In this document: positions 7,299 through 44,900 of the stretch, piece by piece | Numbering within the stretch: the first letter of the stretch is position 1 | Layout: each line of letters starts with the position of its first letter | NCBI GenBank assembly: GCA_944372355.1 | Contig: CALVYS010000005.1 | Span: 1 to 45,376, forward strand | Direction of reading: 5' to 3' | Source: an uncultured Clostridia bacterium | GTDB lineage: Bacteria > Bacillota > Clostridia > Christensenellales > UBA1242 | Length of the DNA: 45,376 nt | Made by a program: the position numbers and the translations under genes | Notes under the pieces: model-generated | What the model was told of the DNA's origin: nothing | Databases searched by the model: none | What the model saw: only the letters and a program-made list of their open reading frames with translations

Positions 7299-7775
7299 TC
7301 AATTTTGAGGAAAAATTAAACTTGCACGCGTTTTTGCAGGAGTAAAAGGTGGGGCAAAGGACTTTAACATAAAGTGCTTTTGTGGGGCGGAGCTTTTGAG
7401 CAGCAGTTTGTTATACAAAATGATGTGCCTTTCTGCCAAAACTGAAATAAAGTTTGTAAGGCTTGGCTTTTCGTATGGGGAAAGATAACAAAACCCCTGC
7501 AGGTCATTGACTTTTTTCAAGGTGTTTTTAAAGTAGGCCGCCTCCAAGCTGTGGCGCATGGCACGCTCGACGTTTTCGCTTTTTGTGGAGTAGATTGAGG
7601 CCACTTTGGGCACTATGTTGGCCTTTATTGATTTGAGCAGTTTTGGGTTTTGTACTGCAAAAAATATGGCTTGGCAAAGATAGGAAAATCCTTTTTGTGA
7701 AGTGGAAATTCCAAGAAAGGCCAAATCTGAATAGATGTTTTCACTGCATTTTATTTCTGCGCTTAGCTCCGGCAT
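7299..7775 (-). CDS. Spo0A C-terminal DNA-binding domain protein with no receiver domain
   Basis: LGI....KGFSYL.QAI, PKVA..YST....VERAMRH and KPS...FI..LA match Spo0A_C. AGAGGAG RBS. Confidence 0.85.
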   Translation of the reverse strand: MPELSAEIKCSENIYSDLAFLGISTSQKGFSYLCQAIFFAVQNPKLLKSIKANIVPKVASIYSTKSENVERAMRHSLEAAYFKNTLKKVNDLQGFCYLSPYEKPSLTNFISVLAERHIILYNKLLLKSSAPQKHFMLKSFAPPFTPAKTRASLIFPQN

Positions 7776-8536: not shown

Positions 8537-9259
8537 GTGAGTGAAGAAAACTGGTCGTTTTGGAAAAAGATTTTAAGGTCACTGCTCGTGCTTTTTGTGC
8601 TGGCAGCTTTTTTAACGTTGGTCTATTTTATCCTGGTCTGGACAAATCTGTGGGAAAAATTCAACTCGGTGGAAAAGCTGCGAGTTTTCATCTTGGACCT
8701 GGGCTTTTGGGGCAGGATAACGTTTGTGTTTTTGCAATTTTTGCAAGTGACTTTTGTGCCAATCCCTTCCACGATTTTGACGATAGCCGGTTCGATCATA
8801 TATGGCCCTTTGCAGGGAGGGTTGTTAAGCCTTTCAGGCATATTGCTTGGCAGCGTGCTTGCGTTCACTCTTGGCAGAGCATTTGGCAGAAAGCTTGTCA
8901 CTTTTATGGTTGGAAAAGAAACCTGTGAAAAATGGGTGAAGTTTCTGTCCAAAGCGCGCTACACCTTCTTTTTTATGATGCTGCTTCCAATGTTTCCAGA
9001 TGACATTTTGTGCCTGGTGGCAGGCGTCACCAGCATGAGCTGGGCATTTTTTGTGACAACAAATCTTGTTACAAGGCCGATAGGCATCTTCATCACCAGC
9101 TATCTTGGCAGTGGCGAAATAATCCCATATCATGGTTGGGGCCTCGTGGTTTGGGCGATTATTTTGGTTGCTGCCATCGTGCTTATGTGGCTTGTGACCA
9201 AATATGACAAACAAATCGAGCAGTTTTTTTTGAAATTATTTAAGAAAAAGAAATCTTGA
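8537..9259 (+). CDS. TVP38/TMEM64 (DedA/VTT domain) membrane protein
   Basis: LQVTFVPIPS, AG..IYGP..G, LLPMFPDDILCLVAG motifs and several TM helices. Confidence 0.9.
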   Translation: MSEENWSFWKKILRSLLVLFVLAAFLTLVYFILVWTNLWEKFNSVEKLRVFILDLGFWGRITFVFLQFLQVTFVPIPSTILTIAGSIIYGPLQGGLLSLSGILLGSVLAFTLGRAFGRKLVTFMVGKETCEKWVKFLSKARYTFFFMMLLPMFPDDILCLVAGVTSMSWAFFVTTNLVTRPIGIFITSYLGSGEIIPYHGWGLVVWAIILVAAIVLMWLVTKYDKQIEQFFLKLFKKKKS

Positions 9260-9266
9260 TAATCGT

Positions 9267-9296
9267 TTGACTAATTTTGTAACATTTTGGTAAAAT
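9267..9296 (+). promoter_or_regulatory. SigA-like promoter, leaderless geometry
   Basis: TTGACT-N18-TAAAAT, then 6 nt to GTG 9303. Confidence 0.65.
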
Positions 9297-9302
9297 AGAA
9301 CT

Positions 9303-11928
9303 GTGAAAAGGAAAACACAAACTTTTAAATTGTTTTTTGGTATGTTATTTGCATGTTGTGGGGCAGTGGCAGGGGGCGTTTTGTTCCCTCGGGGGGGGGG
9401 GCAATTTAGCGATTTACAATGCCGAGCCCACAGTCACCGAAAGAAATCAACTTGCAATCGACCTTGCAAATCAAGCGGTTTCTGATGTTGAATCGCAACT
9501 TGAAGAGCAAGCTTTAATATATCAGGAAGATGTGGCATTGAGGGTCTCGCTCAGCGAGGCTTATTCTTCCGACCTTGCGACATGGTGCACGGAAGGTGGT
9601 GTCGCACCATTAAACAGTGATTCCGACATTTCCGGGCAAGGCCTGCAAAACGACCCTTACTTAATCAAAACGGTGAGGGGTTGGGTTTGGTTTGTTTGTA
9701 AATCCACACACATCGTTGAAAGTCAGAGTTATGTTTATGCAAAGCTTGCGGCAGACTTGGATTTTGATGGCTATGTTTACGATTTGATCACAACCAATTT
9801 TCGCGGATTCTATGGCTCTCTTGATGGAGATGGCTTTGCATTAAAAAATCTTGCGATATCTTGTCCAGGCTTGTTTATGGGCCTTGGGAGTTTGTTGGAT
9901 TTGCAAACAATGGAATTGGCTTTGTATGAACAGCGCACCACTGAAATTTTAAATTTAAATGTAGAAACCATAATTTGTGAATATACAGGCACGCAGGACA
10001 CAGACATTCCTCCATTTGTTTTTGGTATGACAGCCTACAACACAAATTTTGAAAATGTTGAGGTCAAAACTTTTGCTCTTGGCGGGTTTAACGCTGTTGC
10101 AGGTTACACATTTGGTGGAATCAATGTTCAAAATTGCAATTTTGATATGAGTGCAGGCGGATCTTCCAGCCAATCGGTTTTGACAAGCGCATTTATGTAT
10201 GCACTAAGCGGCGAGGGGGTTTCGGCGTTTATGGGGTTGAATGTGACGCCGTTAAAAGACTTTACAAATTTTGAAAACTGCACTGTGAATGTGAGCAGCA
10301 TTTCAAAAAGCAGCATCGGCGACACGGCGTTTGGCTGTTTTGTTGGTGTTTTATGCGGAGGCTCGGCCGACCTTACAAATTGCACCACGCAAGGGCTTCA
10401 TTACGCTTTTGGCGGAATGGGCGGAGCTGGTTTTATTGGGAATGTGATTGACAGCAAAGTTAAGATTGCAAATTGTAAAAATTTTGCAACCATCGTCTCC
10501 TCGCGAAATCTGTCTGGGTTTGTGGCAAGCTTTCAGGTTGGACAACTTTCCACAGTGGGATCTCTTCTCGTGCAAAATTGCAAAAACTATGGTGATTTGT
10601 ATTGCATAGGTTCATCTGCTGAAAACATGGCAGCAGGTGGAATTGTGGGAAGGGTGGATCAAGAAAATGGTTCAGAAAGCCTTGTCACTGTTTCAAATTG
10701 CCAAAACTTTGGCTCAATTTATTCTGGTAATTGCCAGGGCGGCATAATTGGCAGACTTGCAGGCTCCGCCACGATATCTGACAGCGAAAATTATGGAGAT
10801 TTGAAGTTCGTGCTTGTAGAAATTAATCAGGCGGGCATATTGGAAATGGCAATGTTTGGGGCGGCAGCTGGCATTGTGACATCACCATTTTGGTCAAGTG
10901 CAACCACGTTTGTGCTCAACATAGAAAATTGCAACAATTTTGGAAATATAGAAACCAATCCAAGAACTTACGACTATGTTTACGAAACTTCAAACGGACA
11001 ATACCGCCATAGTGAAGGCACCGTTGCCGCAGGAATTTATGCTGGCACAAGCTCATATTTTGGACATGGCACTGGCACTGGTACAAATCCGTCAGGCATC
11101 GACGTTGTCAACATCACAGACAGCAAAAATTTTGGAGATATCAGCGCAAGTTGCAATTTTGTGGCGGGAATAATGTTTGAGTATGGCTATCAATGCACCG
11201 CACGTCTGCTTGAAAATTGTGGAAGTTTTGGCGACATTTTTGTCATCAGCAACAACAGTTATGTCAGCCCACTTGTCTTAACTCAGATGCTAGCACTTGG
11301 GAATGTTATCATTTCAAACTGTTATGTGGAAGCAAGTGCCATTTTGCAAGAACAGCAAGATTCAGATGGAGATATTGTCTCATCAGATAGTTCGTTGGTT
11401 GGCGCGCTCTTGCTCAATCCGCTGGCCGGTGGAATGAGAAACCTGGAAATTTCAAATGTGCAAATTTCTTTTTCTATCAACCTAGAAAATTTGACCGCGT
11501 TGTCAGCCGATGCAAATGTTTTGAACAATTCAGTAGGAGCCTCCACGCCAATTGATTTTGGCTATGTCGAGGGGCAAACTGTTGGGTCAGTGAGCAATGT
11601 TTTGGTGGATTTGAATTACATCTTTCCGGACTATTTTCAACCAGAAGAGAAAAACTATTCCAGGGAATGGACCGACATTTCAATAGGTCAAAGCATCTTG
11701 ATTGATGTGGAGTTTTGCAAAAATCAAACGCGTGAAGATGTTTGCAAAAACTATGTTCACACAAACGATCAGACCCAGCCTTTTTCAACAAGCGATTGGT
11801 TTTTTGATGAGAAACTCAACAATGGCATGCCAATGCTGAGAAGTTTCTATTTTCTTGCAAACAATCTGACCGATCAGCAAGACGTGCTTGCACGGCTTTT
11901 AGAACTAGGTTTCACACCACAAGCCTAG
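9303..11928 (+). CDS. Secreted GLUG/ZmpC-like beta-helical surface protein, frameshifted at a G11 tract (874 aa if G10)
   Basis: The signal peptide MKRKTQTFKLFFGMLFACCGAVAGGVLFPR is in the 9303 frame and the body is in the +1 frame. The body has GQG...DPYLIKT, KLAADLDF, FYGSLDGDGF.LKNL, repeated NC.N(Y/F)G and GGIVG, and C-terminal W..DEKLNNGMPML. Confidence 0.8.
9391..9401 (+). repeat. Poly-G homopolymer (G11)
   Basis: TTCCCTC-GGGGGGGGGGG-CAATTTAGC, located at the frame junction. Confidence 0.95.
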
Positions 11929-12086
11929 TTTTTGGTTATGGAAAGGATCACGCCTTCCTTGATTGCGCTTGGGGTGATGTAGTTTTCCACTAAAATTTGA
12001 GTTGGATTGACATCAAACTTTTTGGCGATGGAGTTGAGGCTGTCGCCTTTTTTTACAACATAAAACGGAACATAATTTTTTTGCAT
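11925..12086 (-). CDS. Small single-LysM-domain protein (53 aa, below the ORF-track cutoff)
   Basis: MQKNYVPFYVVKKGDSLNSIAKKFDVNPTQILVENYITPSAIKEGVILSITKN. YVVKKGDSL..IAKKF is the LysM signature. GAGGTG RBS 4 nt upstream. Confidence 0.9.
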   Translation of the reverse strand: MQKNYVPFYVVKKGDSLNSIAKKFDVNPTQILVENYITPSAIKEGVILSITKN

Positions 12087-26866: not shown

Positions 26867-26951
26867 TTTATATATCTAGATTTATTTTACTTTTTTGCGA
26901 CAAAATTTGATAAAAAGCGTTTATTTAAAAATAATAAAATGGGAGGCAAAT

Positions 26952-29900
26952 TTGAAGAAATATTTATTGGCAGTTTTAAGCGTTTTTCTTCTCGTGGGTG
27001 GCGTGTTTATTTCTGCATGCTCAAACAGTGCTCCACAAGCTGTAATCAACGTTTCTTCTTCTGACTTTGTTTCCGAAGATTACATCGAAATCGATTTAAA
27101 CTCTGACAGGCCTTATGCGCAAGTAACCGCAAGTGTTGAAAATGTTTCCTCAGGCAGGGTGAGCGCCAACAACAACTCAGAAAGCATATTGCAAGCAAGC
27201 GCTGCCTACAATTCAGACGCAAACAACACATTGATCACCATCACTGGTGTGAGTGAAGGATTGGGTTATGTTGAATTGCGCAGTGAGGAGGGCGATGGCA
27301 CAAGGCTTATCACGGTTTATGTTTACAGCGACATATTGGGCATGAGCCAGAAGGCCGATGAAGTTGGCCAAGCCAGCGACCAATATGTTGTCAGAAGTCA
27401 GCAGGGTGAAAACCTTGTCAACATTTTGGATTCTGAAAGATATCTGACCTTTCTTTCACGTGAAAATGGTGAAAGCAATCGAAAAGATGTGACATGGGCA
27501 TTTTCACAAAACCAGCAAAACAATTTGACCGGATTGATTTTGGAAGCAAACAGCCTTGTGGTTCAAAACGGCTACATTGGTGACACGGTTGAATTGGTGG
27601 CAAGCTCGGTTTACACAGATTACTCTGCAACCGTTCAGCTGCATGTGCTCTCTCAACTTTCAGAGCCAACTTTGCAGTTTAGCAGAAGTGCAAACTCCAA
27701 CTTTGGCGACTACAACTCATCGTTTGAAACCCTGGTAAAAAATGACCAGTCAAAAGCAGAATCCGCTCTTTATGTCAGCCTTTCGGTTGAAGCTTCTGAG
27801 GACATCGAGGTTTTGCCTGTTGTGCTTGACAGGTTTGGAAACAATGTGACAAATGCACTCACCATCAGGCGCATCAATGAAAGCTCGTCAGGTGGATTGA
27901 TTCAACGAACCTATGTCGTTGAAGCGGCAAGTGCAGGGTTGGATCCTCAAACATTGACGGTTTACTTTGAAGTTTCTTATCAAGACTACAATTACACTCA
28001 AAACAGCCAGCAGTTCCAAGTTTCCTTGGTCGACGTGGTGGATTCCATCAACATCACAACAGATGGACAAACCGTGACCAATGGCGACACATTTGATGTT
28101 TACAACAACTACAACAACACCGATGGCTCCGGCAACTATGGCAGGCCTTTCGTTGTTAACCTTGGCCCTGACACTGTGGCAAATGATCAAGCAACCTTTG
28201 CAATCAGAATGCGAGAAAATCCAAACGGCAGATTTTTGATATATGTTTCAAATTCAAACAGCAGCTATTACATTCAAGAAAATTTCACACCAGTGCTGAT
28301 TGATGGAATCACTTACTATCAAAGCCAGCCGATCGCCAATGGTTCAGTGGTGTATTTCAGAGCATCTGGAACCTTTGGAAGTGGTGATGAAACCGATGTT
28401 GCATTCTATTCAACTCAATCTGAAAATGTGGCCTTAAATTTCAAATTGCGCAGCTATTTTGCTCCAAGTGCCAATTTTAATTTCAGCAACAATGTCACTT
28501 TGGATTATCACATCTCAACACAAACTTTAAATTCTGTCACAATCTCTTTCACACTTGATGAAGTGCAGCTTGCAGACATTGCCTCTGGGTTATACTTGGA
28601 TCCGACAGATGGAGCAGGCAATCCAAACACCGATTTTGAAGTCAGTGAACTGACAATTGTTGGAGAAACCGGCACTTTCACTGTGTCAAACCTTGAAACC
28701 AACTTGACAGGTTCATCACTCACAATCGCTTTGAGGCACAGAAATGGCTTCTATGCTACGGCAAATTTCACTGTTCAGGCTTTTGTGCCTTTGTCAGATG
28801 CCGTGCTCAGCTATCAAGGCAACAGCACCAACGCGGTGGCTGCGTCGGGAAACGCTTATCAAACGAGTGGAGGCATTGAGTCGTTCACATTGAACAGGCT
28901 TGTGATGACCTCTACAAATTCTTTGGTGTTGAACGTTCGCACCAACACAAATGCAACATTGAGCAGCCCTTACGCTTTTGCGTTTTACAAAACAGACGAA
29001 GAGCTTGACGGTTCGATTCTTGATCAGCTTCAAGAAAGCATGCGTGACAATGCTTCCGTAACATTTGATGCGACAACGGGCAGAATGACGGTGAACAATG
29101 ATGTCAAAGGGTATGTGGTTTTCACCTTTGATGGCTTTGATCAAAAACACAATCAAATCACCGTGCAAAGATGGTTTTATTTGGAAGGCTTCACATCGCC
29201 AACCAGTCTGAGGCCAAACCCTCAAAGCCTTTCTCTCATTGCAAGAGATTCGATTTCCACGCAAGATGCATCACTGGCGCAGGGATCGGTGAGAGTGACA
29301 TTCAGAACCGATGGAAATGCAATCACTTACTATGACGAGAGCAATTTTAGTTTCACTTCCTCCACAGGGGCAAGCGTAAATTTGCTGGAAAAAGGCTATA
29401 ATTATCAAATAACAAAAATCAGCACAACAGATCAGGTTTTGAGCTTTGACGTCGTTGCAAACACCACAAATGGGTTCAAAACTTTTGTCGATACGCTGGT
29501 TGTGGAATACACTGTTTTTGGAAGAACTTATTACGCTACAATTGAAATCAACATAACAAATGCCACAAGAGTTGAGCAGGTTGTTTGGGAAAATCAAACC
29601 TCAGATGGTGAAATTTACATAGATCTTTATGCAACAAACTCCACAGACAGGCAGTTCACAATCATAACCTCAACCTTGCCTTTAAGTGCATATAACGACG
29701 AATTGACTTACATCTTTGTTCCAGACAGTGGCACAAGCGCGAACCTTGTTTCCATCAACGAGCTTGGCATTGTCACTCCAAATTCGCAAACAGTGGGTGG
29801 AACAGGAACCATCTTTGTGCTGCCTAGCGATGCCATAAGGGTTGTCGGCGGCGTGGCTCAAATCGTTTATCTTTCAGAAGTTGATGGAGAGGTTACATCA

Positions 29901-32900
29901 AATTCAGTCCCTCTTTCAGAGCTTTCCAATCGCTATGATGAAATCATAAACGGCTACTTTGTTTCAGACAGAACAGCCGAAGATGTTACTAATGTTTATT
30001 ATAGAGATATTATTCTTAGAATAAGATTAACTGTTGCAGATGGCAGAAGCGAAGAGACTGCAACAAGGATTTATAATGCCGCTCAGTTTGCAGAAATAGA
30101 TCCAAACATGCACTACATTCTCATGTCCTCAATCGAACTTGCAGATTGGGAGTCTTTTGGCGCGCCACTTACAGGATCACTGAAAGGCTATGACAACAAC
30201 ATTTCAATAAGTTTAACGGGCCAGCCAATTTTCAATCAAATTGCCTCAACTGGAAAATTTGAAAACTTCACTTTGTCTGGCGAAGTCAATGGCGGAGGCT
30301 TTGTTGCAAATCTCAACCAAGGGTCAATCAAAAATGTGACCATCACCGTGCAGTCATCTACTTCTTCACCAAGTTTGCTCAACGGCGGATATGAATTTGA
30401 TGGAAATCTTTATGCAGGTGCAATCGTCGGAATCAACGAGGGAAGCATAGGTGCAGAAGATGGCGAAGTCAGAATCGAAGGTGTGACAGTAGACATTGCA
30501 ACCGGCGACGACCTTTCTTATGCCGGTATGTTTGCCGGAAGCAACTCAGGAGCGATCTCTTACACTTACGGCGAATTCTATATTTTTGATCAAACAGAAA
30601 GTGGAGACGATGTCATCAACACCATCACAGCTGCATATGTTGGAGGCTTTGTTGGCAGCCTCACTGGCGGATCAATCACTCACAGCTATGTGTTTAACTA
30701 CACTTTTGATGGAAACGGCACATTCACTGCCAATGCATTGAATGCCGAAGTATATAGTGGGGCTTTTGCAGGGGCTTACAGTTCAGGCGAGATTTCAAAC
30801 TCTTTTGCAATGGTCCAAGATAATATTAATTCAGGAATACTAACAAACATTTCAAATTCTTACTGGGGTGTAAGCGACGACACAGGTGACACCAACTCAG
30901 AGTATTGGATCGATGCTGGCGAAGAAGGCTTTAATTCATATGTAAGAAACGGCCAGCCTCATCTTCGTTTCTATCAGTCAGAGGCGCTGCTGGATTTAAG
31001 CGTGATAGCAGTTCAAACCACTTCAAAATTTTTGCCAGTCAATAATGGAGAAGAGGGTATCTTGTTCTTGCACAGGGTGCAAAACAGTTTGGGCATGTCG
31101 GATTCAGCTTCCACAGCGCTGACGCAGCTCAACACCATCTCTTTTGTTGAATTGTTTGGCAACGCAAGCATCGTGGCAACCTCGCTCAACAACAACATTG
31201 CAGAGGTTGTTGGCAACAACGTCCTCATCAAAGAAACCGGCGATTTGACATTGCAAATCACAGGCAAACAAGACTACACTCAAAGCAGAGAAATCAACTT
31301 TAAAGTCGTTTATGTGGTGGAAGATTTCCAGGCAACCTATGGCGGCATTCAATCCACAGGTTTTGACTTGCAGGAAGGCCAAACCGCAAACATCATCTTC
31401 AAAATCAAAAACAGCGTCTATCTTGCAAACGAAACCCAGCCGAGAACGCTGCGTTTGGAAGAAATGAGCCTGACAAACGAGGTTGGCATAGAAGACGACA
31501 ATGGCGAGACTATCAACTTCGATAGTGAGTTTGTCAACTACACTGTCAACGGCATGGTTGGAACGGTGAGCTTTGGGCTTGGTTTGACTGATGAACTTGA
31601 AAACAGAACAAGCGTTATATTGACTTCAAAAATAAATCTGACCGATTTTGCAGATAACGATGCCTACCAAACGGCAATTGAGCAGGCTTTCTCGCAAAGC
31701 TTGACCGTGAGACCTTTCCAAGGTGCAAATGAGATTTTGACAAATGTTGACAGCATGACTATAAACCCTTCTGTCACATCAAAAATCACCGTTGTGCTTG
31801 CCACAGATTCGAGTGCAGACAGCATCAGTTTGCAACTGTTGAGAAATGGCTCTCCGCTCACTTTTGGCGGAGCAAACAACGGCCAAACATCATTTGTTTA
31901 CAGTGACGATGGCACCAGCGCAAGCATCTTCTATTCGCAGGCGATTTTAGATATGTCGATTTCAAGGTCAGCCTATGATGAAACCACACAAACTTACACC
32001 TATGAAATCACATTTAAGGTGGCGGAAGATTATCGCTCACAGATTGCGGCCAACGAGGATTACACTTTGGTGATTAGCTCGGTTTCTGGCACAGCAAGAA
32101 ATGAGGGCAGAGAAGTTGACATCACTTTGACAAGACAAGACATCAACTACATCGACATTGCAAACTATGAAGCTTCAAATGTTTCCAACATCAATGGAAA
32201 CATTGTCTACACTTACCAAACCAATCAAGTTTCGGTGCTTTCACCAGGACGCAGCTCATTTATGGTTGTAAATGTGGATCCAAGTTTTGCTTATTACAAC
32301 TATATGACTCTCACTTACAGCGCAGTCGACACAACAACCAATCAGCCATCTTCTTCAATCTTGACCATGGCAAAATTGAACGAGTTTTCGGGCGGCGGCG
32401 TCAACAACGGCTATGTTGTGGATTATTCATCAAATGTTTCAAATGATGTCATCAATGGTTTGAGGGTGAACAGAGATGACTCTGGCATCTATGTTTTCAG
32501 ACTGTATCCATCTCCAAACATTGGATCCGACACAACTTTTGTCATCACAGCAGCCTTCTACGATGCAAACGGCAATCAAATTGCACAGTCGGTTTACGAA
32601 TTGTTTGTTTCCTATCTGCCACAGGCTGAAATTTTGGTTGACGGTCAAAACTCCACAATTCTCGCCAAAGGCGGCACGGCAGAACTTTCCATCTTGTTGC
32701 AGCAGGGGCAAGAACTCGACTATTTGACGGCCACGGGAGCAACAGGTGTGACCATCTCTCCAAAAGAGGCTTGGCAGGTTGAAGAATTGAGCAATGGAAC
32801 CGTGCTTTACACAGCTCAGCTTCGTGCATCGCTGAATGCTTCTGTCAACGGCACAAATGGAACCTTTGAGGTTACTGCACAAGTTTCAAGATATCTCAAT

Positions 32901-35900
32901 GGTGAGACCGACCGCAAAACCTCCACGGCATATGTCACACTTGTGAACTTCAAACCAACCTCAGCAAGCTTGGAGGGAGCTACTTACAACTCATCAAACA
33001 ACACCTATATGTTTGACACTTATGTTGGCATCACAAATGGACTGACTTTTGATTACAGTTTCAATCCAGAGAGCTATGCTTATGACGCTTCAAATCAAGA
33101 CGAGGTCGAGCTTGCAAACAGTCTGTATGAAGCAAGAGAGCAGTTTATTCAAGCAGGTTATTATCAAGACGACGAAACCGGCTTTTCAATCAATTATTAT
33201 AACGGCAACGCCATTCCAATTTATCAGAGATTGGAAATGAATGGCACGCGTCTCAATTTCACGCAGTCTGGCGATGGCGTTTATACTTATTCAAACACAA
33301 GGTTCAGATTGACCTACACCGAAGAGCGCAATGATGACAACGAAATCACGAGTGCGTATCTCACCGTGACAGGATTGACAACAACAGCTTCGCCTGTTTA
33401 TCTGACCCTTGTTGACGAAATCAGATTGGACAGCGACGGCTCAGATGTGCTTTATGAAATAGAAACCAACTTTGCAATCTCAGTTGGAATTTATTCGGAT
33501 CAAGACAGGGCGTTGCCTATTCGCACAGCAGAAGAATTTTTGAGCGTGGCAGATGAAGGACAGGCAGCGGATTACATCTTGCTAAGCGACATCACCTTGA
33601 CAAACTACACTCCAATTTCTTCTTCAAACTTCCGCTCTCTTGATGGAAACGGCTACACAATCAACATTGAAAGCTTCAATCTTGAAGGGTCTGGAACGCT
33701 GAATTTGGCACTCTTCACAACGATTTCAGCAGATTCTGTCATCAAAAACGTTAGAGTCAATTATTATCAAAGCCAGCCTATAACCATTGATGTAACCTCA
33801 ACTGGCTATTCAAACATCAACATCGCGGGCTTGGCGATCACAAACAACGGAACGGTGACAAACACCCAAGTTGTTGCTTACAAAACGGCATCGACAAGCT
33901 TTACAAATTCTGGTGACATAGGAATCATCGTGAATTATGTTCGCGGTTCAACACCGGTTTACATCGATGCAAATTCCTCCATCAGCAGCCAGGTTGCAGG
34001 TTTTGTCATCACCAACTCAGGCTCCATCACCAACTCAAAAGTGGGAGGAGAGGAGATTATCATCATAGGCGAGCAGGTGGCAGACAGCGACAGATTTGAA
34101 TACACCACCGAATCGCTTTCCACCTTCACAATTTCGGCGCAGGGCACTGTGTCTGGGTTTGTCATCACCAACTCAGGCGACATTGCGTCAAGCAGCGCAT
34201 CACAGGTTCAAATAACAAACCTTGCTTCTTCCAACCAAACTCAAACCGCAGGCTTTGTCATCACCAACTCCGGTGACATTCGCGCCTCGGCAGTGCAAGG
34301 CGTCAAGAGGCAGGGCACGGGCAATGATGCTGACACCTATCATCGCACTGGCAGCAACATATCAGCAAACGGCACGGTTTCTGGATTTGCCATTCGCAAC
34401 ACCACAACAGGTGTGATCAGTGATGGCTACTCCAATATTCTCATCTCCGACAGATCCACTCAAAACAGTTTGACAAGTGCCGGATTCATCTATCAAAATG
34501 AGGGCTACATTGAAACCTCTTATGCAGCTTCGTATGTTGAAAAAGCCAACATTCGTCAACTCAGCTTCTCAGGTGTGGATTCCACCGGTCACTCGTTGAA
34601 CACCGGAACCATTGAGCTTTCTTACTACTATATCGCCGATTACGATGATGACACGGCAAGCGATGTGGAAGGCACTTTGGATTCTGCAAACCTTATAAGC
34701 AGAGAAGAGGTTGAAAATCAAAACGCCTACTATGGCTTCATCTTCAATTCAACCTCCTCAGCAGGTGACGGAATTTGGACGTTGATTGAAGGCGAGGGCG
34801 TGGAACCGGTTTCGCTTTCAACCTTGACAATCTCTCACAGATATTATGTTGCCGGGCAAGATGGAGAATACTTCCTTCCATATTCAATTCTGACAAACTC
34901 TGGCAACTCTTTCGCGCCGGATTACGACACAACATATGGCGAAGACATCAACCCAATTTTGATCACTTCGGCACAGGATTTCCAAGAGGCGATGGGTGCT
35001 TCAACCTCCACCTCAGTTGGCGGACAGTTCAATGACACAGAAATTTTTGGTTCCTATCGATTCGCTGCCGATATCGATCTTTCAGAGCTGAACAACGACA
35101 TTGGAAATGCCGAAGTTGGTTCGGTTGACAGAATTTTCAGCGGCCAAATTGACGGAAATGGCTTTACAATCAACAACATATCTCTTTCCAGCAGCAACAA
35201 CGCAGTTGGTCTGTTTGCAGAAACTCGAAATGCTTTGATTCAAAATCTCAACATTGAAATCAACTCGATCACTGCCGGCAACTCGGTTGTGGTTGGCGGG
35301 CTCGTTGGCGTGGCAAAAGATTCCAGAATCATCAACATTCAAATGAGCCAACGCACCACCACTTCGGGAGATTCCGAGGAGCGTGGCGTGCACGGCCGCA
35401 ATGTCACCGGAGGCATCGTGGGCGCGGCCTTTGGTCAAAGCGTGCTGGTGGGCCTTTCAGCCACAGACGCCATCGTTCAAAGCGGTTATTACAACAATTC
35501 AACAGCAAACAATTTTAATCAGGCAATCTACTCACGAGGCGATTGGTCCTTCAACGCGCAAGCAGTGCGAACTTACGCGGAGGCAAATTCGTCGCAGCTT
35601 TATGCGGCCGACGGCCTTGGTCAAACCTCGTTTGCAGGTGGGCTTGTGGGTTATCTAGACATTTACACAGCTTCACAAGTTTTGCAATCCAACTATATTT
35701 ATGTCACAAATCTCAGCAACTCTGATTACAGCGTAAGCAATTTCAGGGTCAACAATTCAATTGACGTGCGTGCAGAAATCGTGGGCGGTTTGATAGGCTA
35801 CACCGGTCCTCAAACCAGAGTGCAAGATGCTGGAATTTACTTCACAAATCAAGCCAACACCTATGCCAACCTGCTTTCTTACAACTTTGCAGCAGGCGGC

Positions 35901-38900
35901 CTTGTTGGCCTTGCAAACGGCGATTTCTATCAAGTTTTTGCACAATATGAGCAAACCTTGCAAGATGAAATTGAAAGCAGCACCAGCCAGTATTATGGCG
36001 GAGCTTCAACCACCGAGCGTGGCTTGACCGACATATTTGAAGGCACGGCAAGTGAAGTTGGCGCTCAAAGCTATCAACCAAAGTTTGTTGGTGGTCTGTT
36101 CGGCGTGATTGGCACGGGCAGGGTTTACATTGCTTACAGCAAAATCAATGCAATCAATCCTCAAAATGGCGGCTATGCAGGTGGCATTGCCGGAGGGGTT
36201 TATAATGCCTCCGAATTCTTGATAGACGATCCTGCATCAAGCAGCAGTCAAGCAACGATTGCAACCACACTTTTGCTCAATGAAGTTTACGCTTCTGGCG
36301 ATGTTTATGCCGAAGGTGTCTTCAACAATGTTGCAACGCATTTCGGCGGGCTGTTTGGCAGATTCCTGAACGTTGGCAGCACCAATGTCAAACTTTCAAT
36401 GGCCGCAGTCAATGCAGTCAACGAATATGGCATCTTGGGTGAGGGTTATTATTCCGAATCCAACCCAACTGGAATTAATCAGATAAACGCCTTAGTGGGA
36501 ACGATGGACGCCGGCGCTTCTGTGTTTGTCTATGCAGTTTCTGCAAGCGGACAAAATTTGCCAGATGTGTCCGACATCAAATCGTATGGCTACATGAGCT
36601 CCTACACCTCTGGCTCTGTCACCGTCAACGTGAAGAGCGGCGTATATAAAGAAACTGAGTCAAGTGGAGATGAAGAAACTGGGTCAGATGATGGAAGCAG
36701 CCCTAATGAAGTAGATGCTGACTATGTGTTCAGAATCGAGTCAGTCAGCTCGTTCACCTCGCCAGAAGATGGCTTCACTGACACAAACGGAGCCTTCATC
36801 AATTCAAACGCTTGGAGCAGCGACAACTGGATTCATGAAACCACCAAGCTCTATCCAGACATCAACCTTGTCAACACCATTTCTTACATTTATCTTGATC
36901 AAGATAATGTTGACAGCGTGGTGGCAAGAATGCAAAATTCGTCCATCGAAGTTCGTGTGCGCGGCAAAAGAGTAGACGAAAATGGCAATGTCTCATATGG
37001 ATATGTGGATTTGAGAGATTACACAATTGAAAACTTCACTGGCCGTTTGGTTGGTGCGGTTGACAACAGCTGGTTTGTAAACTCCAATTTCGGAGCATAT
37101 ACAAATGGCGATGAGAATTCTACGGACATCTTCAGCAACAACTATCCAGGTATAATCTTGAATGGCACATTGTTTGAAACCCCGCTCTCAGGTGCAACTT
37201 TCCAAAATTTGAACATAGTTTTTGACTCAGAACCAGAAGGAGCATCTATTGGCAGCTCGTTTATTTCAGGAACAAACTTGCAGGATCTCACATTCTCTGA
37301 TATAAACGCTTGGTTTGTTGATGGAGTAAGCATCACTGCCGAAGAAAGCGGCGGCAACGCCTATGGCGGCTTGTTTGTTTCCTCTGCAACCAACACAAGT
37401 TTCAGAAACATCTTGTTGCAATTCTCTGCAACTAACACTGATAGCGGTAATATAGTCAAATTCACAACCAGTACCAACAATAATAATGATGAGGTTCAAT
37501 ATACTGATGCTGCTTTTGGCTTGCTGGCAGGTCAGCTTGTGCAGGGCTCGCCATTTGACGCATTGCGTGTTCAAAACATTACAATCAAACACAAAGAAAT
37601 AGACAATCTTGATGCCGACCATGCATTGATGAGGGTTGAAATTGGAAATAATGTTGCAAACCTCTATGCAGGCTTGTATGTTGGAAACATTAGAAACTCA
37701 GAGGGAGGACAATATGCAGGAGTCAACATCACAGCCAGAGCACCTCAATCGGCAAATGATGATTATAGTGAAGATACCTTTACATCAGCTTTGAGCCTTG
37801 GTGGCGGATTCAGCGTGACAGGCACGGCTTATATTGGCGGATTTGTTGGTCAAATATCCACATCAAACACGGCCTTCACATTCATAAAGGATCAAACTTA
37901 TCAGCAAAGCATAAACATCTATGCCGATTTCGCGGCTGCGGATATGAACATTGGTGGACTTTTTGGTGATGCCACTCTGACAAGTTTTTCAACAGACATA
38001 ACGGTGGAAGGCACACAGCAATTATTTGATTCGAACATTCGCCTGACGAAAAACATTGGAACTGATAACGGAAATGACAAAAAAGGAAATCTTAATGCTG
38101 GTCTGCTTGCGGGTAGTATCTCCTCTGGGGCGAACATAAGCCTTAATCCTACTTCACGCTACACGATTTCTGGCTCCATCAGTGCGGCCATTACATCAAG
38201 CACGACTGAAACTGACACCACAGGAATAAGCGGCAACGCACATTTGGGCGGCTTGGTTGGACGCAATAATGCCAACATCACTGTCACAAACCTTGATCTT
38301 TCCTTTGAAATTTATGGAACAGGCAATGACGAAAGTGCAGATGAAAATGCCTTTGAGTTGACAAACGATGCAATGGGAAAAGCCTTCCAAGCAAACGCAA
38401 TCGATGCTGGTGGCCTTGTTGGAACCAATGCTGGCGATCTGATCATTGGCGAAGAGCAAGAGGTGGGCCCAGGCACTGGTGTCAGCGTAAATGCAGATCG
38501 AGAAAACCTCAGGCTTCAAGCCACTGGTGGAGAGCTCAATGCTGGCGGTCTTGTTGGAAATATGACCGGAGGCAGCGCCACAATTCAGGCTTTAAGCGAC
38601 AATGCTTCAATAATTTGGGCTCTTGGCAACACAAGTGGAACAACAAATGTTGGCGGCATAATCGGCGATGTGACAAGCGGCGTTTCTGAATTGAGCATCA
38701 GTAAGGCACAAAGTGATGTCAACTTCTTTGTAAGCGCAAAAGATGTCAACGCAGGTGGAATCATAGGCCATTTAAATTCAGCTGCAACAATCGACAGCAC
38801 TGAAATCGACAGCACTGAATTTTCTGGCTCCTTCAAGGTGTTTGGCGGCACAAGCAATTCCGGCGATCATAAGATGGGCGGTGTTGTTGGATATGTCGGT

Positions 38901-41900
38901 GAGGGGTCTCAAATCGATATAATTTCAAACAAAACCTATGGTGATGTAATTTACACCTACGGCTCTGACTTCACGGGATTAGGTAGTTATCACTTTGGCG
39001 GCGTTGTTGGTGACGTGGATTCAGGTTCGGTATCACTTGGTGCAAACATTGTGGCGTTCACAAACAACAATCAAGCGCGCGCAAGTGGAACGCATTTCGC
39101 TGATGCAATGGTGGGGAATGGTGGCTTTACTCAGTATACAGGAATTTCGGATATCACCAACTATTATTCTTCGCAGCTTGTTTTGGCAACCAGCGACAAC
39201 GCTGTGGATTTGAACTACAACATAGAAAAAGGCACAACACCAGTCACAGGTTATTCTCCAAATGGTGAAAATTATCAGGCTCTAGCTCAATCCATCATTA
39301 CAAAGCTTTTTGGCAAAGATGTTTATGGCGACAGTGGCACAAAATTCAACCCTGTAACAGATGGCACAACAGCCGTTACCACTGAGGGTGAGGTAAAAAC
39401 AGTCAACACCACTCATGGCATTCAGTATTACACAACCAAATATCCAAACTACATTCAAGGCACCACTGAGTCAACCACTGAGACAACCACAACCTCGCCA
39501 AATGCCTACGCCTTTATCGGTGATTGGGTTCAGCAAACATCGGCACTTGAAACGCTTTCACAACACAGCTTCGTCTCCGGCGTTTACACCAATCTTGACA
39601 TTCAAGACGCAAATAATACGACTCGTTATGGCAAAAACAGCGGCGGAATTGTCAACACAATGACTGGCGGCATAATCTATGCCAGCCTATCCTCTGGCAC
39701 GCTTTCAGTGGGTGGAGGTGAAGATAAACAAATAAACCTTGGTGGCATCGTTGGCCTCATGACAGGCGGCTACATCAACGAATGCTCTTCCTCACTTGAA
39801 ATCGTCTATCGCGCAGCAACAGGTGGCACAGCTTCTGGCATTGCAACGTCGTTAGAAACAGACAACACAACAAACACACCGCTCAACAGAATTTACATCA
39901 ACAACACTTATTCAACTGGCACAATCACCTCTTACATTGATGCCAACCTCTTTTCCTTCACAAATGGCACAGCAGCGGGCACAGGCACCGATGGAAGAAC
40001 CCATTTCTACATTACAAACAGCTACACAATCTCTCGCGTAAATTGGAATGATTACACAAGTGATAAAACATCACATGCTAATACTATATATTTGGGCGTT
40101 ACTGGTTCTGCGCAAACAAATACTTTTGCCTATGATCCTAACGCTTTAGGAGATGCTTATAATAAAGAAAATAAAAGCACAGAAGCAATAGATAATTCCG
40201 ACGACTCACAAGATACAAATAAATGGATTTATCCAGCGTCATTTAATTCTAACGATTCAGGCTCTGTTCCAGGGGGTGGTATTCTGATTGGGACAGACAA
40301 AGGTTGGTCGAAAACTAACACGATCAACTATGGCTATCCTGTGCGCAACTTTGCACAATTCAAAGATTTTACAACTCAAACAACAATTGGCACCATAATT
40401 TATCAACAAATCCCAAATGTCACCAAGTTTGTTCAAGCATCTGACACAGACAAAAACTACATTCTCACAAACGACATTGATTTCAACGAAACGACTTATG
40501 CTGATTCTTGGACCAGCCTTATCTTTACAAACGTCGCATACTTCGATGGTGACGGGCACACGATCAGCAACCTTACGGCTAGGACATTGATTGACACGGT
40601 TCAAAACATTTCCAACCTCCGCGTGACAGATGCTGCGCTGAACGCCCAAGCAGTGGTTGCCCTTCATGTCACAGGAAACGCAACCAATGTGATCGCAACA
40701 GGAACGTTGAATGGCTCAGGCTCCAATGTTGGAGGGCTGTTCGCACAAGCAGAAGGGGAAATAGAAAATTGTAAAAACTATGTGGCAATATTAAGTTGTT
40801 CAACCCCAGGAGCGCGTGTTGGAGGAATTGTAGGGTATTCAACCGCTTCAATTTCCAACTCGTTCAACTATTCTCCAATTGATGCGAATGTAACAGGTGG
40901 TTATGTCGGAGGTATTGTGGGTTATTTATATGGATCCACCGGAAATGAAATTACTGATTGTGGCAATGAAAACACGGTGTTTAATGGTTACACCACTACA
41001 ACCAATAATGGCGACTATTATGCTGCCGGCATTGCAGGTTATTCAAATGTCAACATTTCCAACTGCTACAACACCTCGATGGTCAAAGCTGGCAACAAGG
41101 GCATCAATGCGGATGGATCTGGTGCAGCCTATGCCGCAGGTATAGTGGCAACAGCAAATAATAATATTTCAGTTTCCTCCTGCACAAACACCGGCTTCAT
41201 TGAGGCACTTGGAAGCAACACACCAAATACTAAAACAGCGTTCAGTTTTGGGGAAGATATATACTCAGACGGAAGCGAAGATGAAAATGAAAACAAACAA
41301 TTAACCGGCACGACAAAAAATGACGAATATTTTACTACAACGGAATACATTTCATACTTAATAAATTGCAATAATATAATAAACGTTCAGGTCGATCCTA
41401 TTGGAATTGACATGAGTAGTCAAAGTGACAACTTAAACGAAGGCTCGATTTACAAAAACGGAGCATTTGGCTCTCGGTCAGGAAGTGTGTTGGTGACAAT
41501 CCCAACCTACGAACCTGGCTGGAATGGTTCAAGCGTGAACATATCAGTTAATGATATAACAATTTCATTAACTTCTGCTCCAACAGCAGTTGTCGCAGAA
41601 ACCGATGAACTTGGTGCAATGACCAAATTCTATGTCAAGACCCAAAGAACGATTAATTATGCGTGGTCAGTTCAAAGATATCAACAACGATATTGGGAAG
41701 TTGTTGATATTAACCAAAATGGAAACCAACAAGTAGATTTTAGTCAAAATAAATATTATGCGCAACGAGCAAAAATGGGAACCTCTTATAATGGAGGTGG
41801 CGCAAGCATTAACACAAATCAAGGTTCAGGGGAATACGAACTAGTATCAATTAATGGAGCTAAATATTATTTTGTAGACAGTGCTTCTGCATTTATGACG

Positions 41901-44900
41901 GTGGTTCAGGCGGGCATTTCAACAGCCACGACAACATATAGTGGAACAATTGGTGAAAAGTCCATTGCAGCTTTGCAAGCCGCAGGTTACACTTTCTCTA
42001 TAACACCAACGACTGATCCTGAGAACTCAAATGTATCTGTTTCGTATTATTATCAAGATGAGAAGTTGTTTATCTCTTTCACAACACAAGATACGGGTGA
42101 TCCAGGTGTAACAATCACTGGTTATACAATTTTAGCAAATAAAGCTGATGAAACAGAAAGTTTCTCACTTTCAAGCAGTAATATAAAATTTGAAAAAGGT
42201 ACTATTACGATATATACAGATTTTGATGCAGATGTTCTGGCAAATTTACAAAATGGAAAAACATACAATGTTTCAGCTGGCAATGCAACATATAAATTCG
42301 TTTGGAATCAAGAAGAGGAAATATTAACATTCTCTGGTACCACTAAAAGTGATTACAATAATATTCTCGGAAGAGGTGTTGTGACCTTAACATTTCTTGA
42401 TGAGAACTCAATTCTTGAACAAACTGTTTCAACAGAGATAGGCCTGACTCCAACCAACATTGAGACATCTTATGATGGAAGCACAACAGAAACAATAAGG
42501 CATGTGAGAAGTATAGACTTTGTGATGTTTCGGGATGTTGTGGGAGATGAGACCGAAACGTTCACATTGTCAGGAAGCAATGATGTTCAGTTCTCAAATG
42601 ATGAAATAACGATTTATACAAACTTTAACTCAAACATAACTTCATCACTCATTAATGGCTGGGAGTATAATGTCAAGATAGATAATACAACTTACGAATT
42701 TATGTGGAATTCAACAAGCCAAACCTTAACAATGGCTGGTGATGAGGAGACATTTAACAAGATTAGAAATTCTAGCGCGACATTATATTATCTCAAATAT
42801 GTTGACAACGAAAACGAATTGATCATTTATGACGATGATTCGTTAACACTGACTCAAACTGTCACAGTCCAAGGCAGGGCAACAAGATTTTCTTTTGGCA
42901 ATTATGTTTATGAAATACCTGAATCAGGAGAAACTGACAATACTTTGGATTTGACTCCAAACGGTGGAACGAATGTGATGAACTTTAAAACGCGCTATGA
43001 TGGACAAATGACCATCTTAACAGTTGAAGCCGAAAGCTCTGATGGTATGTTGTCTGTTGCATTTTTAGGCGGGCGATATAAGTTCGAATTTGCAGATCCA
43101 ACTGGCGACAGCACGATGTTTGCAGAAACAAAAACAGTTGAAGACGTGGAGACATTCTCGGGAGATTTTGTAACGGCAACTTACACAAGATCAAATGAAG
43201 AAGGAGCATTTTCAAGCGTCGGCAAAACTTTGTATTTGGGAGAAGATACACTTGCGGGTCAGCAAGCCATAGTTGAGGTGTATGACTACACACAAACCTA
43301 TGATCTGTCACAAATCGAAATCGCCGTTCAAGAAGGCGAAGCAAGAGAATATCTTGCGGTATACAACACAACCGAAGAAACACAGAAAGTGAACAGTGGC
43401 GATGAAATCCGAACGATAACCTTTAACAATTTAAATGGAGCAAATATTTTATTAGTTTTAAAGAAGAGAAACGTTAACCTTTCTTTGGAGGCTTCAGAAG
43501 AGTTTATACAAGAGGGCTCTCTTAGTTTGACATTAAAAACTCAAGATGTTATTTTAACTGCAGAGGATGCGAACACTATAATAGGTGCATATAACACTGA
43601 TGAAACGCAGGCTACTTTCACCATAAACTCACAAGTATACTCTGTGCTGTTCGATGAAGATGGTAATATCACAAATATTTTAAACAGCAGTGGCATAGAA
43701 TCCGGTAATATAAATGATTATTACATAACAATCGATGGAATGAATTTTATGTTTATCAGTAATGATGATTCTGCTCCAATGCTGGTTGAATGTTTGGTCG
43801 GTTCTAATGGAACTGTTAATATTGAAAGCTTAAATATTTCATATGAAGCTAACACAGCAGAAAATGCAGAGCAGCCTTTTGTTTTCAAAGATGGAGACTC
43901 AATTATACCTATCACTCCTGCGACAGAAGATAGAGAGGCCTATATAACCATTAATGGAACAAATTATACATTCCAGCCTATCACAACTGTTATTGAAAAT
44001 ATTACTGATTACACGCAGGGTACTGATGAAGATGGAAATGTTGTTTTGGACATCATATATTCAATCGATAGTCTTAACGCTCCAAATGCCTATATTGAAG
44101 CAACCTTTGATCAATTATCCACCGGAACTCAAAATATAAGTATCGCTTACAATACCTACACTTTGGATTTTTCTACAACTGGATTAAAAAACATAACGTT
44201 TGTAGATGCAGAAAGTGAAGAGACCTCGAGTACAAATACAACATTTGGCCCAATATTTAATGGTGATTTAAGTGTGATAGGAAGTTATACTGCGACCGCT
44301 ACATATGATGATTACCAAGAGAAGAACATACCATTTGATAATCCTACTGATGATTCAGATGATGATCCTGAAACGGAAACTGTTGACCCTGCACCTATCG
44401 TGGTAACAGCTGATATCGATTTGGGAAATATTAATAGTGCTTTGCCTACAAAAGTTGCAATGATCACAAGCACAAATTCAAACATTGTAACTTTCCGCAC
44501 TCAAACAGCTACAGGTTTATTGGATCAGCAATCGTCAGGTAATTCAGAACAACCGGAATATAGCCCACTTATGATGAAAAATATCGCTTTTGCCGGTTCA
44601 GTGAAGATGGAGAATGGGAACAACTCATATGGTTTGATCGCCGCCAGTCTAAACAGCACCACGGCAATTAATGTTTCAACTTATGGGACGATTTACAATC
44701 TTGGTGCTGCAGGTGCGACAGGTGGAGGCGTGGCAGGGAGCTTTACTGGAATATTAAACAACGTGAAGTCTTTCACTTCCTTCTCACACGACACAAGCAA
44801 CACCTCTCGTGAAGACAGCGATTTCACCGGCTCGATGGCGGGAATTGCTTGGAAGATTACTCCTGAAAGCACTGAAAGCACTGAAAAGATTAGAGTTTTC

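Follow-up and report, generated by a model that had tools for sequence, protein, structure and literature searches.

A putative poly-G slippage switch in a GLUG-related surface-protein gene of an uncultured gut Clostridia bacterium

A run of eleven G residues (G11) lies in the 5′ coding region of a surface-protein gene on contig C5 of an uncultured Clostridia genome (assembly G000, NCBI GCA_944372355.1; 874,025 bp, 32 contigs, 41.5% G+C, rated 98% complete). The whole of this contig (CALVYS010000005.1, 45,376 nucleotides) was analysed and is referred to as the window. We consider it very likely that G11 is a slipped-strand tract, forming a contingency locus that couples an export signal to the body of a GLUG-related β-strand-repeat surface protein. 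A sequence-only reading of the window had proposed such a locus, OFF as assembled, and the proposal is supported here by the run statistics of the genome, by a family of paralogous tract-bearing genes and by length differences between assemblies.

Reading frames and transcription signals at the G11 tract

The locus comprises the following features, with positions in nucleotides (nt) of the window.

9267..9296, + strand: σ70-type promoter, TTGACT, 18-nt spacer, TG-extended TAAAAT (10 of 12 matches; scan)
9303..9305, + strand: GTG start codon, 6 nt past the −10 hexamer (reading of the letters and alignment A2, see below)
9303..9390, + strand: predicted coding region of an N-terminal export signal or membrane anchor, K/R-rich and then about 19 hydrophobic residues
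9303..9485, + strand: product of the OFF state as assembled, GTG start, 60 amino acids, beginning MKRKTQTFKLFFGMLFACCGAVAGGVLFPRGGGQFSDL (list of open reading frames, ORFs)
9337..11928, + strand: long-frame ORF, 863 amino acids from TTG, shifted by one frame against 9303–9485 (ORF list)
9391..9401, + strand: putative slippage tract G11, with C at 9390 and C at 9402 on either side
9403..11928, + strand: surface-protein body, 841 amino acids plus stop, intact and free of internal stops (ORF list, alignments)
12024..12057, + strand: terminator-like hairpin (12024–12047) and T-run, 3′ of the stop codon (scan)

The tract forms a one-base toggle in the 5′ coding region. With G11, the frame opened at GTG 9303 stops 27 codons past the tract, at 9485, and yields 60 amino acids, whereas G10 or G13 would yield 874. 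Skipping one tract base in 9303–11928 gives these 874 residues as one frame, containing ...LFPRGGGNLAIYNAEP... / ...VLFPRGGGNLAIYNAEP... By frame arithmetic, the in-frame tract lengths are 7, 10, 13 and 16, and with G12 only one more codon is read past the tract before a stop. The sequence-only reading had described the promoter, the GTG at 9303, a signal-like N-terminus, G11 at 9391–9401 and the stop at 9485, and all of these were recovered at the same positions. Its G10/G13 read-through and the fused peptide were likewise reproduced, the downstream ORF that it had called otherwise intact contains no stop in its 841 codons, and besides the tract, which it had taken for the only long G/C homopolymer, the window indeed has no G/C run that reaches 7.

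The tract is located in the coding region, 95 nt downstream of the −10 box and outside the −35/−10 spacer (promoter 9267–9296, tract 9391–9401), which differs from the placement of the porA/opc type discussed below. Judged from the spacing of promoter and start codon, the mRNA is probably translated from its very 5′ end or close to it, and such a leaderless mRNA would explain the absence of a ribosome-binding site at GTG 9303. Because a terminator-like hairpin with a T-run follows its stop codon, the gene looks monocistronic.

These elements suggest how the locus could operate. The strong TG-extended promoter would drive transcription, with the start codon 6 nt past its −10 box, and the G run would gain or lose a G during replication. 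At 10 or 13 G, signal and body would share one frame and the protein would be made and exported (ON). At 11 G, the assembled length, translation would end after 60 codons, and at 12 G just past the tract (both OFF). Switching within a population and export of the protein are both expectations from sequence.

Long G/C tracts in a paralogous surface-protein family

To place G11 in the context of its genome, the numbers of G/C runs were compared with those expected from a first-order model of the whole 874,025-bp genome:

Length 6: 11 observed, 58.4 expected
Length 7–9: none observed, 13.6 expected
Length 10–13: 4 observed, 0.09 expected

Thus, G/C runs longer than six are avoided in G000, with the exception of four very long ones:

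C5, 9391..9401 of the window, + strand: G11, out of frame as assembled
C6, 37231..37240: G10, out of frame as assembled
C11, 19094..19106: G13, out of frame as assembled
C30, 54..65, minus strand: C12, seemingly out of frame; the gene body runs off the contig, the tract lying 54 nt from the contig end

All four runs lie early in the coding sequences of surface-protein paralogues, 79–93 nt behind the start codons, which bears out the earlier suspicion of a genome-wide family. All four genes carry an N-terminal membrane anchor or signal plus GLUG-type repeats. The part encoded before the tract is a cytoplasmic tail ahead of the membrane anchor in C6, C11 and C30, and a short charged and hydrophobic export signal in C5. 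Two further paralogues, on C10 and C23, are free of a tract; they have the same promoter and the same N-terminus in one continuous frame, reading from MKNKEQKIK... through KKHVLSGVLAFLICF... without a frame break. The short 'leader ORF' of the tract-bearing copies is therefore the true N-terminus of the protein. The genes on C6 and C10 run off their contigs, and overall the two are only 46–51% identical.

The promoter and start are shared throughout this family. In alignment A2 of six loci (window 9291–9305, L123, L124, L125, L126 and L127), every locus retains the block TTTGACTAA and the −10 region, and the start codon (ATG in five, GTG in C5) stands exactly 6 nt past the −10 hexamer in every case. 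This spacing suggests leaderless mRNAs for the whole surface-protein family. The proposed mechanism would accordingly extend to three more switches (G10, G12 and G13), on paralogous GLUG genes with the same promoter and start. With four switches on one family, a population would carry a shifting mixture of surface-protein combinations, and the benefit would likely be escape from phage, from host immunity or from partner-specific attachment constraints.

A 13-nt motif precedes the C6, C11 and C30 tracts. It is matched in 13 of 121 genus genomes (G000 included) and is followed by a G run only in G000 (three places) and G051 (one place). The remaining 12 places are unrelated coding matches.

Tract length in other assemblies and competing explanations

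The read-through protein was searched against 5.8 billion proteins, of which four matched at an E-value of 1e-5 or better. The two closest are cluster representatives with 10 and 3 members; 12 of these 13 records keep the N-terminus, and one is a C-terminal fragment. The tract is uninterrupted and in frame in four of the 12 N-terminal records, interrupted and in frame in three, and out of frame in five:

P0002, P0011, P0016, P0012: in frame, uninterrupted, MLFGMIMACC..GVLL(P/S)RGGGNLAIY, implying G10
P0007: in frame, interrupted tract, PRGGSN
P0008, P0014: in frame, interrupted tract, PREEGGN
P0013 (the window's own gene call), P0009: out of frame, LGGGGNLAIY, implying G11
P0006, P0010: out of frame, LGGGGQFSDLANAEP, implying G12 plus a 2-nt insertion downstream
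P0003: out of frame, TSGGGQFSDLANAEP, implying G10 on the background of the 2-nt insertion

On the background of the 2-nt insertion, 11 or 14 G would be in frame. The five out-of-frame records start at out-of-frame codons and have no signal peptide, and among all 12 records of the gene there are five different start positions. Past the tract, P0009 does not differ from the window. Near-identical records of the C11 paralogue were not found in other assemblies, its best match being 53% identical, so tract variation could be checked for the C5 gene only.

We also compared window positions 8900–10400 with Logan contigs of four chicken-gut sequencing runs (X2, X3, X4 and X7), excluding as evidence the contig-free parts of this interval and runs with only a small share. 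In X2, one contig starts at 9387 and continues gap-free through CCTC and G11 into the downstream flank. In X7, a contig shows one extra G (G12) and a GC insertion behind 9416, matching P0006 and P0010; the X7 strain diverges from the window by 25 substitutions in 511 bases and 27 in 1008. No contig bridged the tract with 31 nt on each side in any of the four runs, and in the deeper runs, X2 and X7, the tract was the sole break in 1.5 kb. Exact-pattern scans of Joint Genome Institute metagenome contigs, with both tract flanks or with the downstream flank alone, gave no match and hence no strain data.

Judged from these sequences, natural tract lengths include 10, 11 and 12, and the predicted ON and OFF states both exist, the lengths being those of consensus sequences of related strains, from possibly overlapping samples, and not of single molecules. 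The sequence-only reading had named an invariant length across strains as a finding that would speak against a switch; instead, G10, G11, G12 and interrupted tracts were found, in and out of frame.

Several observations weigh against a slippage switch. The lengths in other strains derive mostly from gene calls on short-read consensus, which are prone to homopolymer miscounts, and the records are related and may partly share source samples. All four G000 tracts are out of frame as assembled (with the body of the C30 gene off its contig), which would fit decay or a systematic miscount too. The contig breaks at the tract could reflect poor sequencing of poly-G rather than heterogeneity. Finally, MutS and MutL are both present in G000, and mismatch repair by these proteins should lower slippage rates relative to Campylobacter.

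Three other explanations of the tract were weighed against slipped-strand switching. The one that survives best, which we nevertheless regard as unlikely, is that RNA polymerase stuttering or ribosomal frameshifting on G11 yields some full-length protein, making the tract a dimmer and not a DNA switch. In some reduced genomes, namely those of insect endosymbionts, out-of-frame genes are known to be rescued by transcriptional slippage at long homopolymers, and such slippage could act on top of DNA slippage here, adding leakiness. Length differences between assemblies are, however, seen directly at the DNA level, so that DNA slippage occurs whatever happens at the RNA level, and none of the sequencing runs that contain the stretch is recorded as RNA.

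Somewhat less probable again is an assembly or sequencing artefact, in which the true length would be in frame in all cells, the gene intact and G11 a homopolymer miscount. Long homopolymers are error-prone in short-read data, the contigs of all four runs break at the tract, and the 57 nt upstream of it differ at about 12 positions from all other assemblies, which hints at a low-quality consensus. On the other hand, three sequences that were built separately (the window, the X2 contig and P0009) share G11 on the same background, so the OFF state does not go back to a single assembly error. On other backgrounds, G10 or G12 occurs along with a compensating 2-nt insertion, which alters the in-frame length, the interrupted tracts are all in frame, and four tracts in one family, along with a genus-wide promoter-spacer pattern (see below), are unlike random miscounts. 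A more specific candidate, dark-cycle poly-G from two-colour sequencers, was rejected: these tails are confined to the ends of reads and cannot link coherent coding sequence on both sides, and the tract recurs in separately built assemblies.

The patch upstream of the tract was characterized further:

9330..9386, + strand: patch of about 12 substitutions, window against every other assembly of the gene (Logan contigs, protein records)

Against runs X2, X3, X4 and X7, the window has 11 common differences at 9330–9374 (five G>T, three T>A, two T>G and one T>C) and probably another at 9386; outside the patch, X2–X4 match it exactly. The remaining protein records all agree with the alternative allele, which reads MLFGMIMACCVALSCGVLLPR at the signal-peptide stretch. 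Two origins fit the N-terminal peptide of the window: a rare allele of the signal peptide or, in part, an error of this assembly beside the poly-G.

Least probable of the three, by a small step, is gene decay, in which the frameshift would be an irreversible pseudogenisation step as a shrinking genome sheds surplus genes for surface proteins. In favour of decay, the genome is reduced (874 kb, 98% complete), and as assembled none of the four genes with a tract is in frame. Against it, the 841-codon body is free of stops and 80–94% identical in three aligned strain-level records, and in-frame alleles are common, making up 7 of 12 records. Moreover, G/C runs above 6 are avoided except for the four very long ones, kept at the same place in one family, and decay would not leave promoter, start and signal conserved.

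Protein family, lineage and comparison with known switches

The body of the C5 protein contains a predicted helix, a DPYLI cap motif, NCxNxG / GGIxG β-strand repeats and a conserved C-terminal domain. The sequence-only reading had called the protein GLUG-like. This did not hold by Pfam, where the C5 protein has no match, GLUG (PF07581) included, even at E-values up to 10, but it did hold by profile–profile comparison with the GLUG paralogues. Specifically, the paralogues on C6, C10 and C23 pass the Pfam GLUG model (29.6–34.5 bits against a cut-off of 20.5), that on C11 is borderline (20.2 bits), and hhalign of the C5 family (alignment A3) against the GLUG paralogues (alignment A4) gave a probability of 99.6% and an E-value of 1.8e-23 over 304 columns, spanning the DPYLI-type cap and the NCxNxG...GGIxG repeats. 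By its sequence profile, then, the C5 protein is a divergent relative of GLUG-motif surface proteins. Its neighbours in a protein atlas bear Glug or Peptidase_M26_N annotations, which serve as leads only.

The GLUG motif occurs in the N-terminal region of streptococcal IgA1 proteases. The C5 protein resembles GLUG proteins in the cap and the repeats, as seen by profile, and differs from them and from the IgA1 proteases in that it has no Pfam hit and that no catalytic or protease domain was found in it. A clean L-[AS]-[GA]-C lipobox was not seen by eye (no predictor was run), and cysteines are present in the hydrophobic segment.

An AlphaFold model built from eight sequences consists mostly of β strands and is weak (mean predicted local distance difference test score 57, predicted template modelling score 0.67). 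No PDB entry matched this model in Foldseek at an E-value of 0.001 or lower; the list of weak hits is headed by right-handed β-helix proteins, namely a putative IgA1 protease, antigen 43, tailspikes and PL6 lyases. Given the weak model and the non-significant search, no fold is claimed for the C5 protein; as far as the model can suggest one, it would probably be a β-helix. The paralogue on C11 (L124:308–4483) has a helical insert at residues ~470–615, with weak hits to Phage_Mu_Gam (27.3 bits, below the cut-off) and Apolipoprotein, which is probably a coiled-coil stalk.

A search of 40 relatives yielded orthologues of the C5 protein in G006 and G011 only, which represent two other species of the genus. 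Both orthologues are intact (877 and 891 amino acids), with 32–33% identity in local matches and 29–30% over the whole alignment. The fused 874-residue reading is collinear with both from the charged and hydrophobic N-terminus to the C-terminus, and the N-terminal K-rich and hydrophobic segment of the orthologues aligns with the fused C5 N-terminus. Neither G006 nor G011 has a G/C run of 9 or more anywhere in its genome; the C5 gene has thus gained its tract recently. A search of species-representative genomes for relatives of the C5 protein gave 51 pattern matches, none of which was confirmed.

Across the genus, long G/C runs are widespread. Runs of 9 or more occur in 50 of 61 genomes (G000 included) and in 39 of the 48 of good quality; many genomes hold ten or more separate tracts, and eleven hold none. 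When one tract per genome was taken (30 tracts, G000 included), 12 lay inside a strong promoter-like spacer, compared with 179 of 6000 random positions in the same loci. The loci in which a G/C run of 9–10 fills a near-consensus −35/−10 spacer are:

L014, L017, L018, L019, L022, L026
and further L031, L032, L035, L037, L039, L040

These runs in sister species are candidate transcriptional poly-G switches. Other tracts among the 30 sit just behind signal peptides, e.g. in L021, L034 and L042. Of 61 genomes sampled from the order, 41 have runs of 9 or more, as do 37 of the 52 genera, by raw counts irrespective of G+C content; given the figure for genera, the poly-G habit may be order-wide. Dozens of G/C-run hits each were recorded in G142, G147, G159 and G177.

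The broader proposal is that a whole reduced-genome lineage of gut Clostridia (probably the family UBA1242) runs a Campylobacter-style poly-G system with MutS/MutL retained, in spacer and coding forms and with GLUG proteins as main targets. We see the chances for and against this proposal as evenly balanced. If it is true, spacer runs would tune transcription, and in leaderless surface-protein genes a run that follows the start or signal would switch translation. Each cell line would then display a different heritable, reversible set of adhesins, and the GLUG-type β-helix proteins would likely hold onto host, mucus or partner cell.

As to the lineage itself, the closest named relatives of the cysteinyl-tRNA synthetase are from uncultured Clostridia metagenome-assembled genomes (MAGs) of animal guts, with Candidatus Onthoplasma at 63% and Christensenella at ~55%. 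According to the available part of a 2025 report (PMC12306168), UBA1242 (Christensenellales, including Onthoplasma) comprises gut bacteria with genomes below 1 Mb and sporulation genes that are probably partner-dependent. The main text of that report, as far as available, contains no mention of phase variation, homopolymers, or surface or adhesion terms, and the accessible portion of a 2026 study of UBA1242 from chicken caecum (PMC13155120) mentions neither phase variation nor homopolymers. Our literature search for poly-G switching in Christensenellales, UBA1242 or Clostridia MAGs found no report.

The C5 locus represents a known kind of switch; it differs from the precedents below in host lineage, gene family, retained mismatch repair and the shared promoter/start cassette. 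In Campylobacter jejuni and Helicobacter pylori, intragenic poly-G/C tracts of ~8–13 lie near the 5′ end of genes for surface structures. The likeness to G000 is considerable: a one-base toggle between full-length and truncated product, several loci per small genome, and runs beyond background. In contrast, Campylobacter and Helicobacter to our knowledge lack MutS/MutL mismatch repair, whereas G000 is a Gram-positive-type Clostridia genome with both proteins. The G000 genes further differ in sharing one promoter, with the start 6 nt past the −10 box, and in encoding GLUG-type repeat proteins instead of glycosyltransferases or flagellar modifiers.

Two arrangements in Neisseria are also comparable. 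In pilC and opa, the repeats lie in the signal-peptide coding region, the opa repeat being a pentamer. As in G000, a repeat in or behind the leader part couples the export signal to the mature protein, and paralogues switch independently; unlike G000, these are Gram-negative pathogens, and three of the four G000 tracts lie in a cytoplasmic tail before a membrane anchor. In porA and opc, poly-G/C switches reside in the promoter spacer. The genus relatives of G000 show this arrangement, with G/C runs of 9–10 between TTGACx and TAnAAT boxes in the 12 of 30 tracts given above, whereas the C5 tract lies downstream, inside the coding region.

The nearest precedent in a gut commensal is Bifidobacterium breve UCC2003. 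Here, the accessible part of the source describes replication slippage at an intragenic G-tract that governs sortase-dependent pilus genes, as shown by error-controlled deep sequencing and in mice (PMC9187656). Like G000, and as far as that part of the source goes, B. breve is a gut commensal with a Gram-positive envelope, the affected product is an adhesive surface structure, and equivalent tracts occur across the genus. The differences are that B. breve belongs to the Actinomycetota, that its products are pilins and that slippage is demonstrated there, whereas G000 offers differences between assemblies only.

Slippage switches are textbook matter in a handful of pathogens and hardly documented in uncultured gut Firmicutes. 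They also bear on annotation and assembly, in that gene callers mis-start or truncate tract-bearing genes and MAG contigs break at the tracts. Four switches on one family in 874 kb point to the molecules that matter most for the way of life of this bacterium, and the proteins of the tract family are candidates for phage receptors or for adhesins that bind a host or partner cell. The combination of long G runs with intact mismatch repair provides a natural test of how such runs stay unstable.

A few other features of the window and genome deserve mention. Long A/T homopolymers are present as T18 at C8:871–888, and as A19 at C1:101834–101852 and A14 at C32:5280–5293, the latter two at contig ends. 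T18 lies inside C8, beside seemingly coding sequence, and could be another slippage site or an assembly artefact. A 158-amino-acid ORF at window positions 7299–7775 (− strand) encodes only the C-terminal (DNA-binding) domain of Spo0A and leaves no room for a full receiver domain, which is odd for the master regulator of sporulation in a reduced genome. Finally, a giant open frame of at least 6160 amino acids extends over 26895–45374 (+ strand) and runs off the window end; the sole Pfam hit in its first 1500 residues is a sub-threshold DUF4313, and it probably encodes another very large surface protein.

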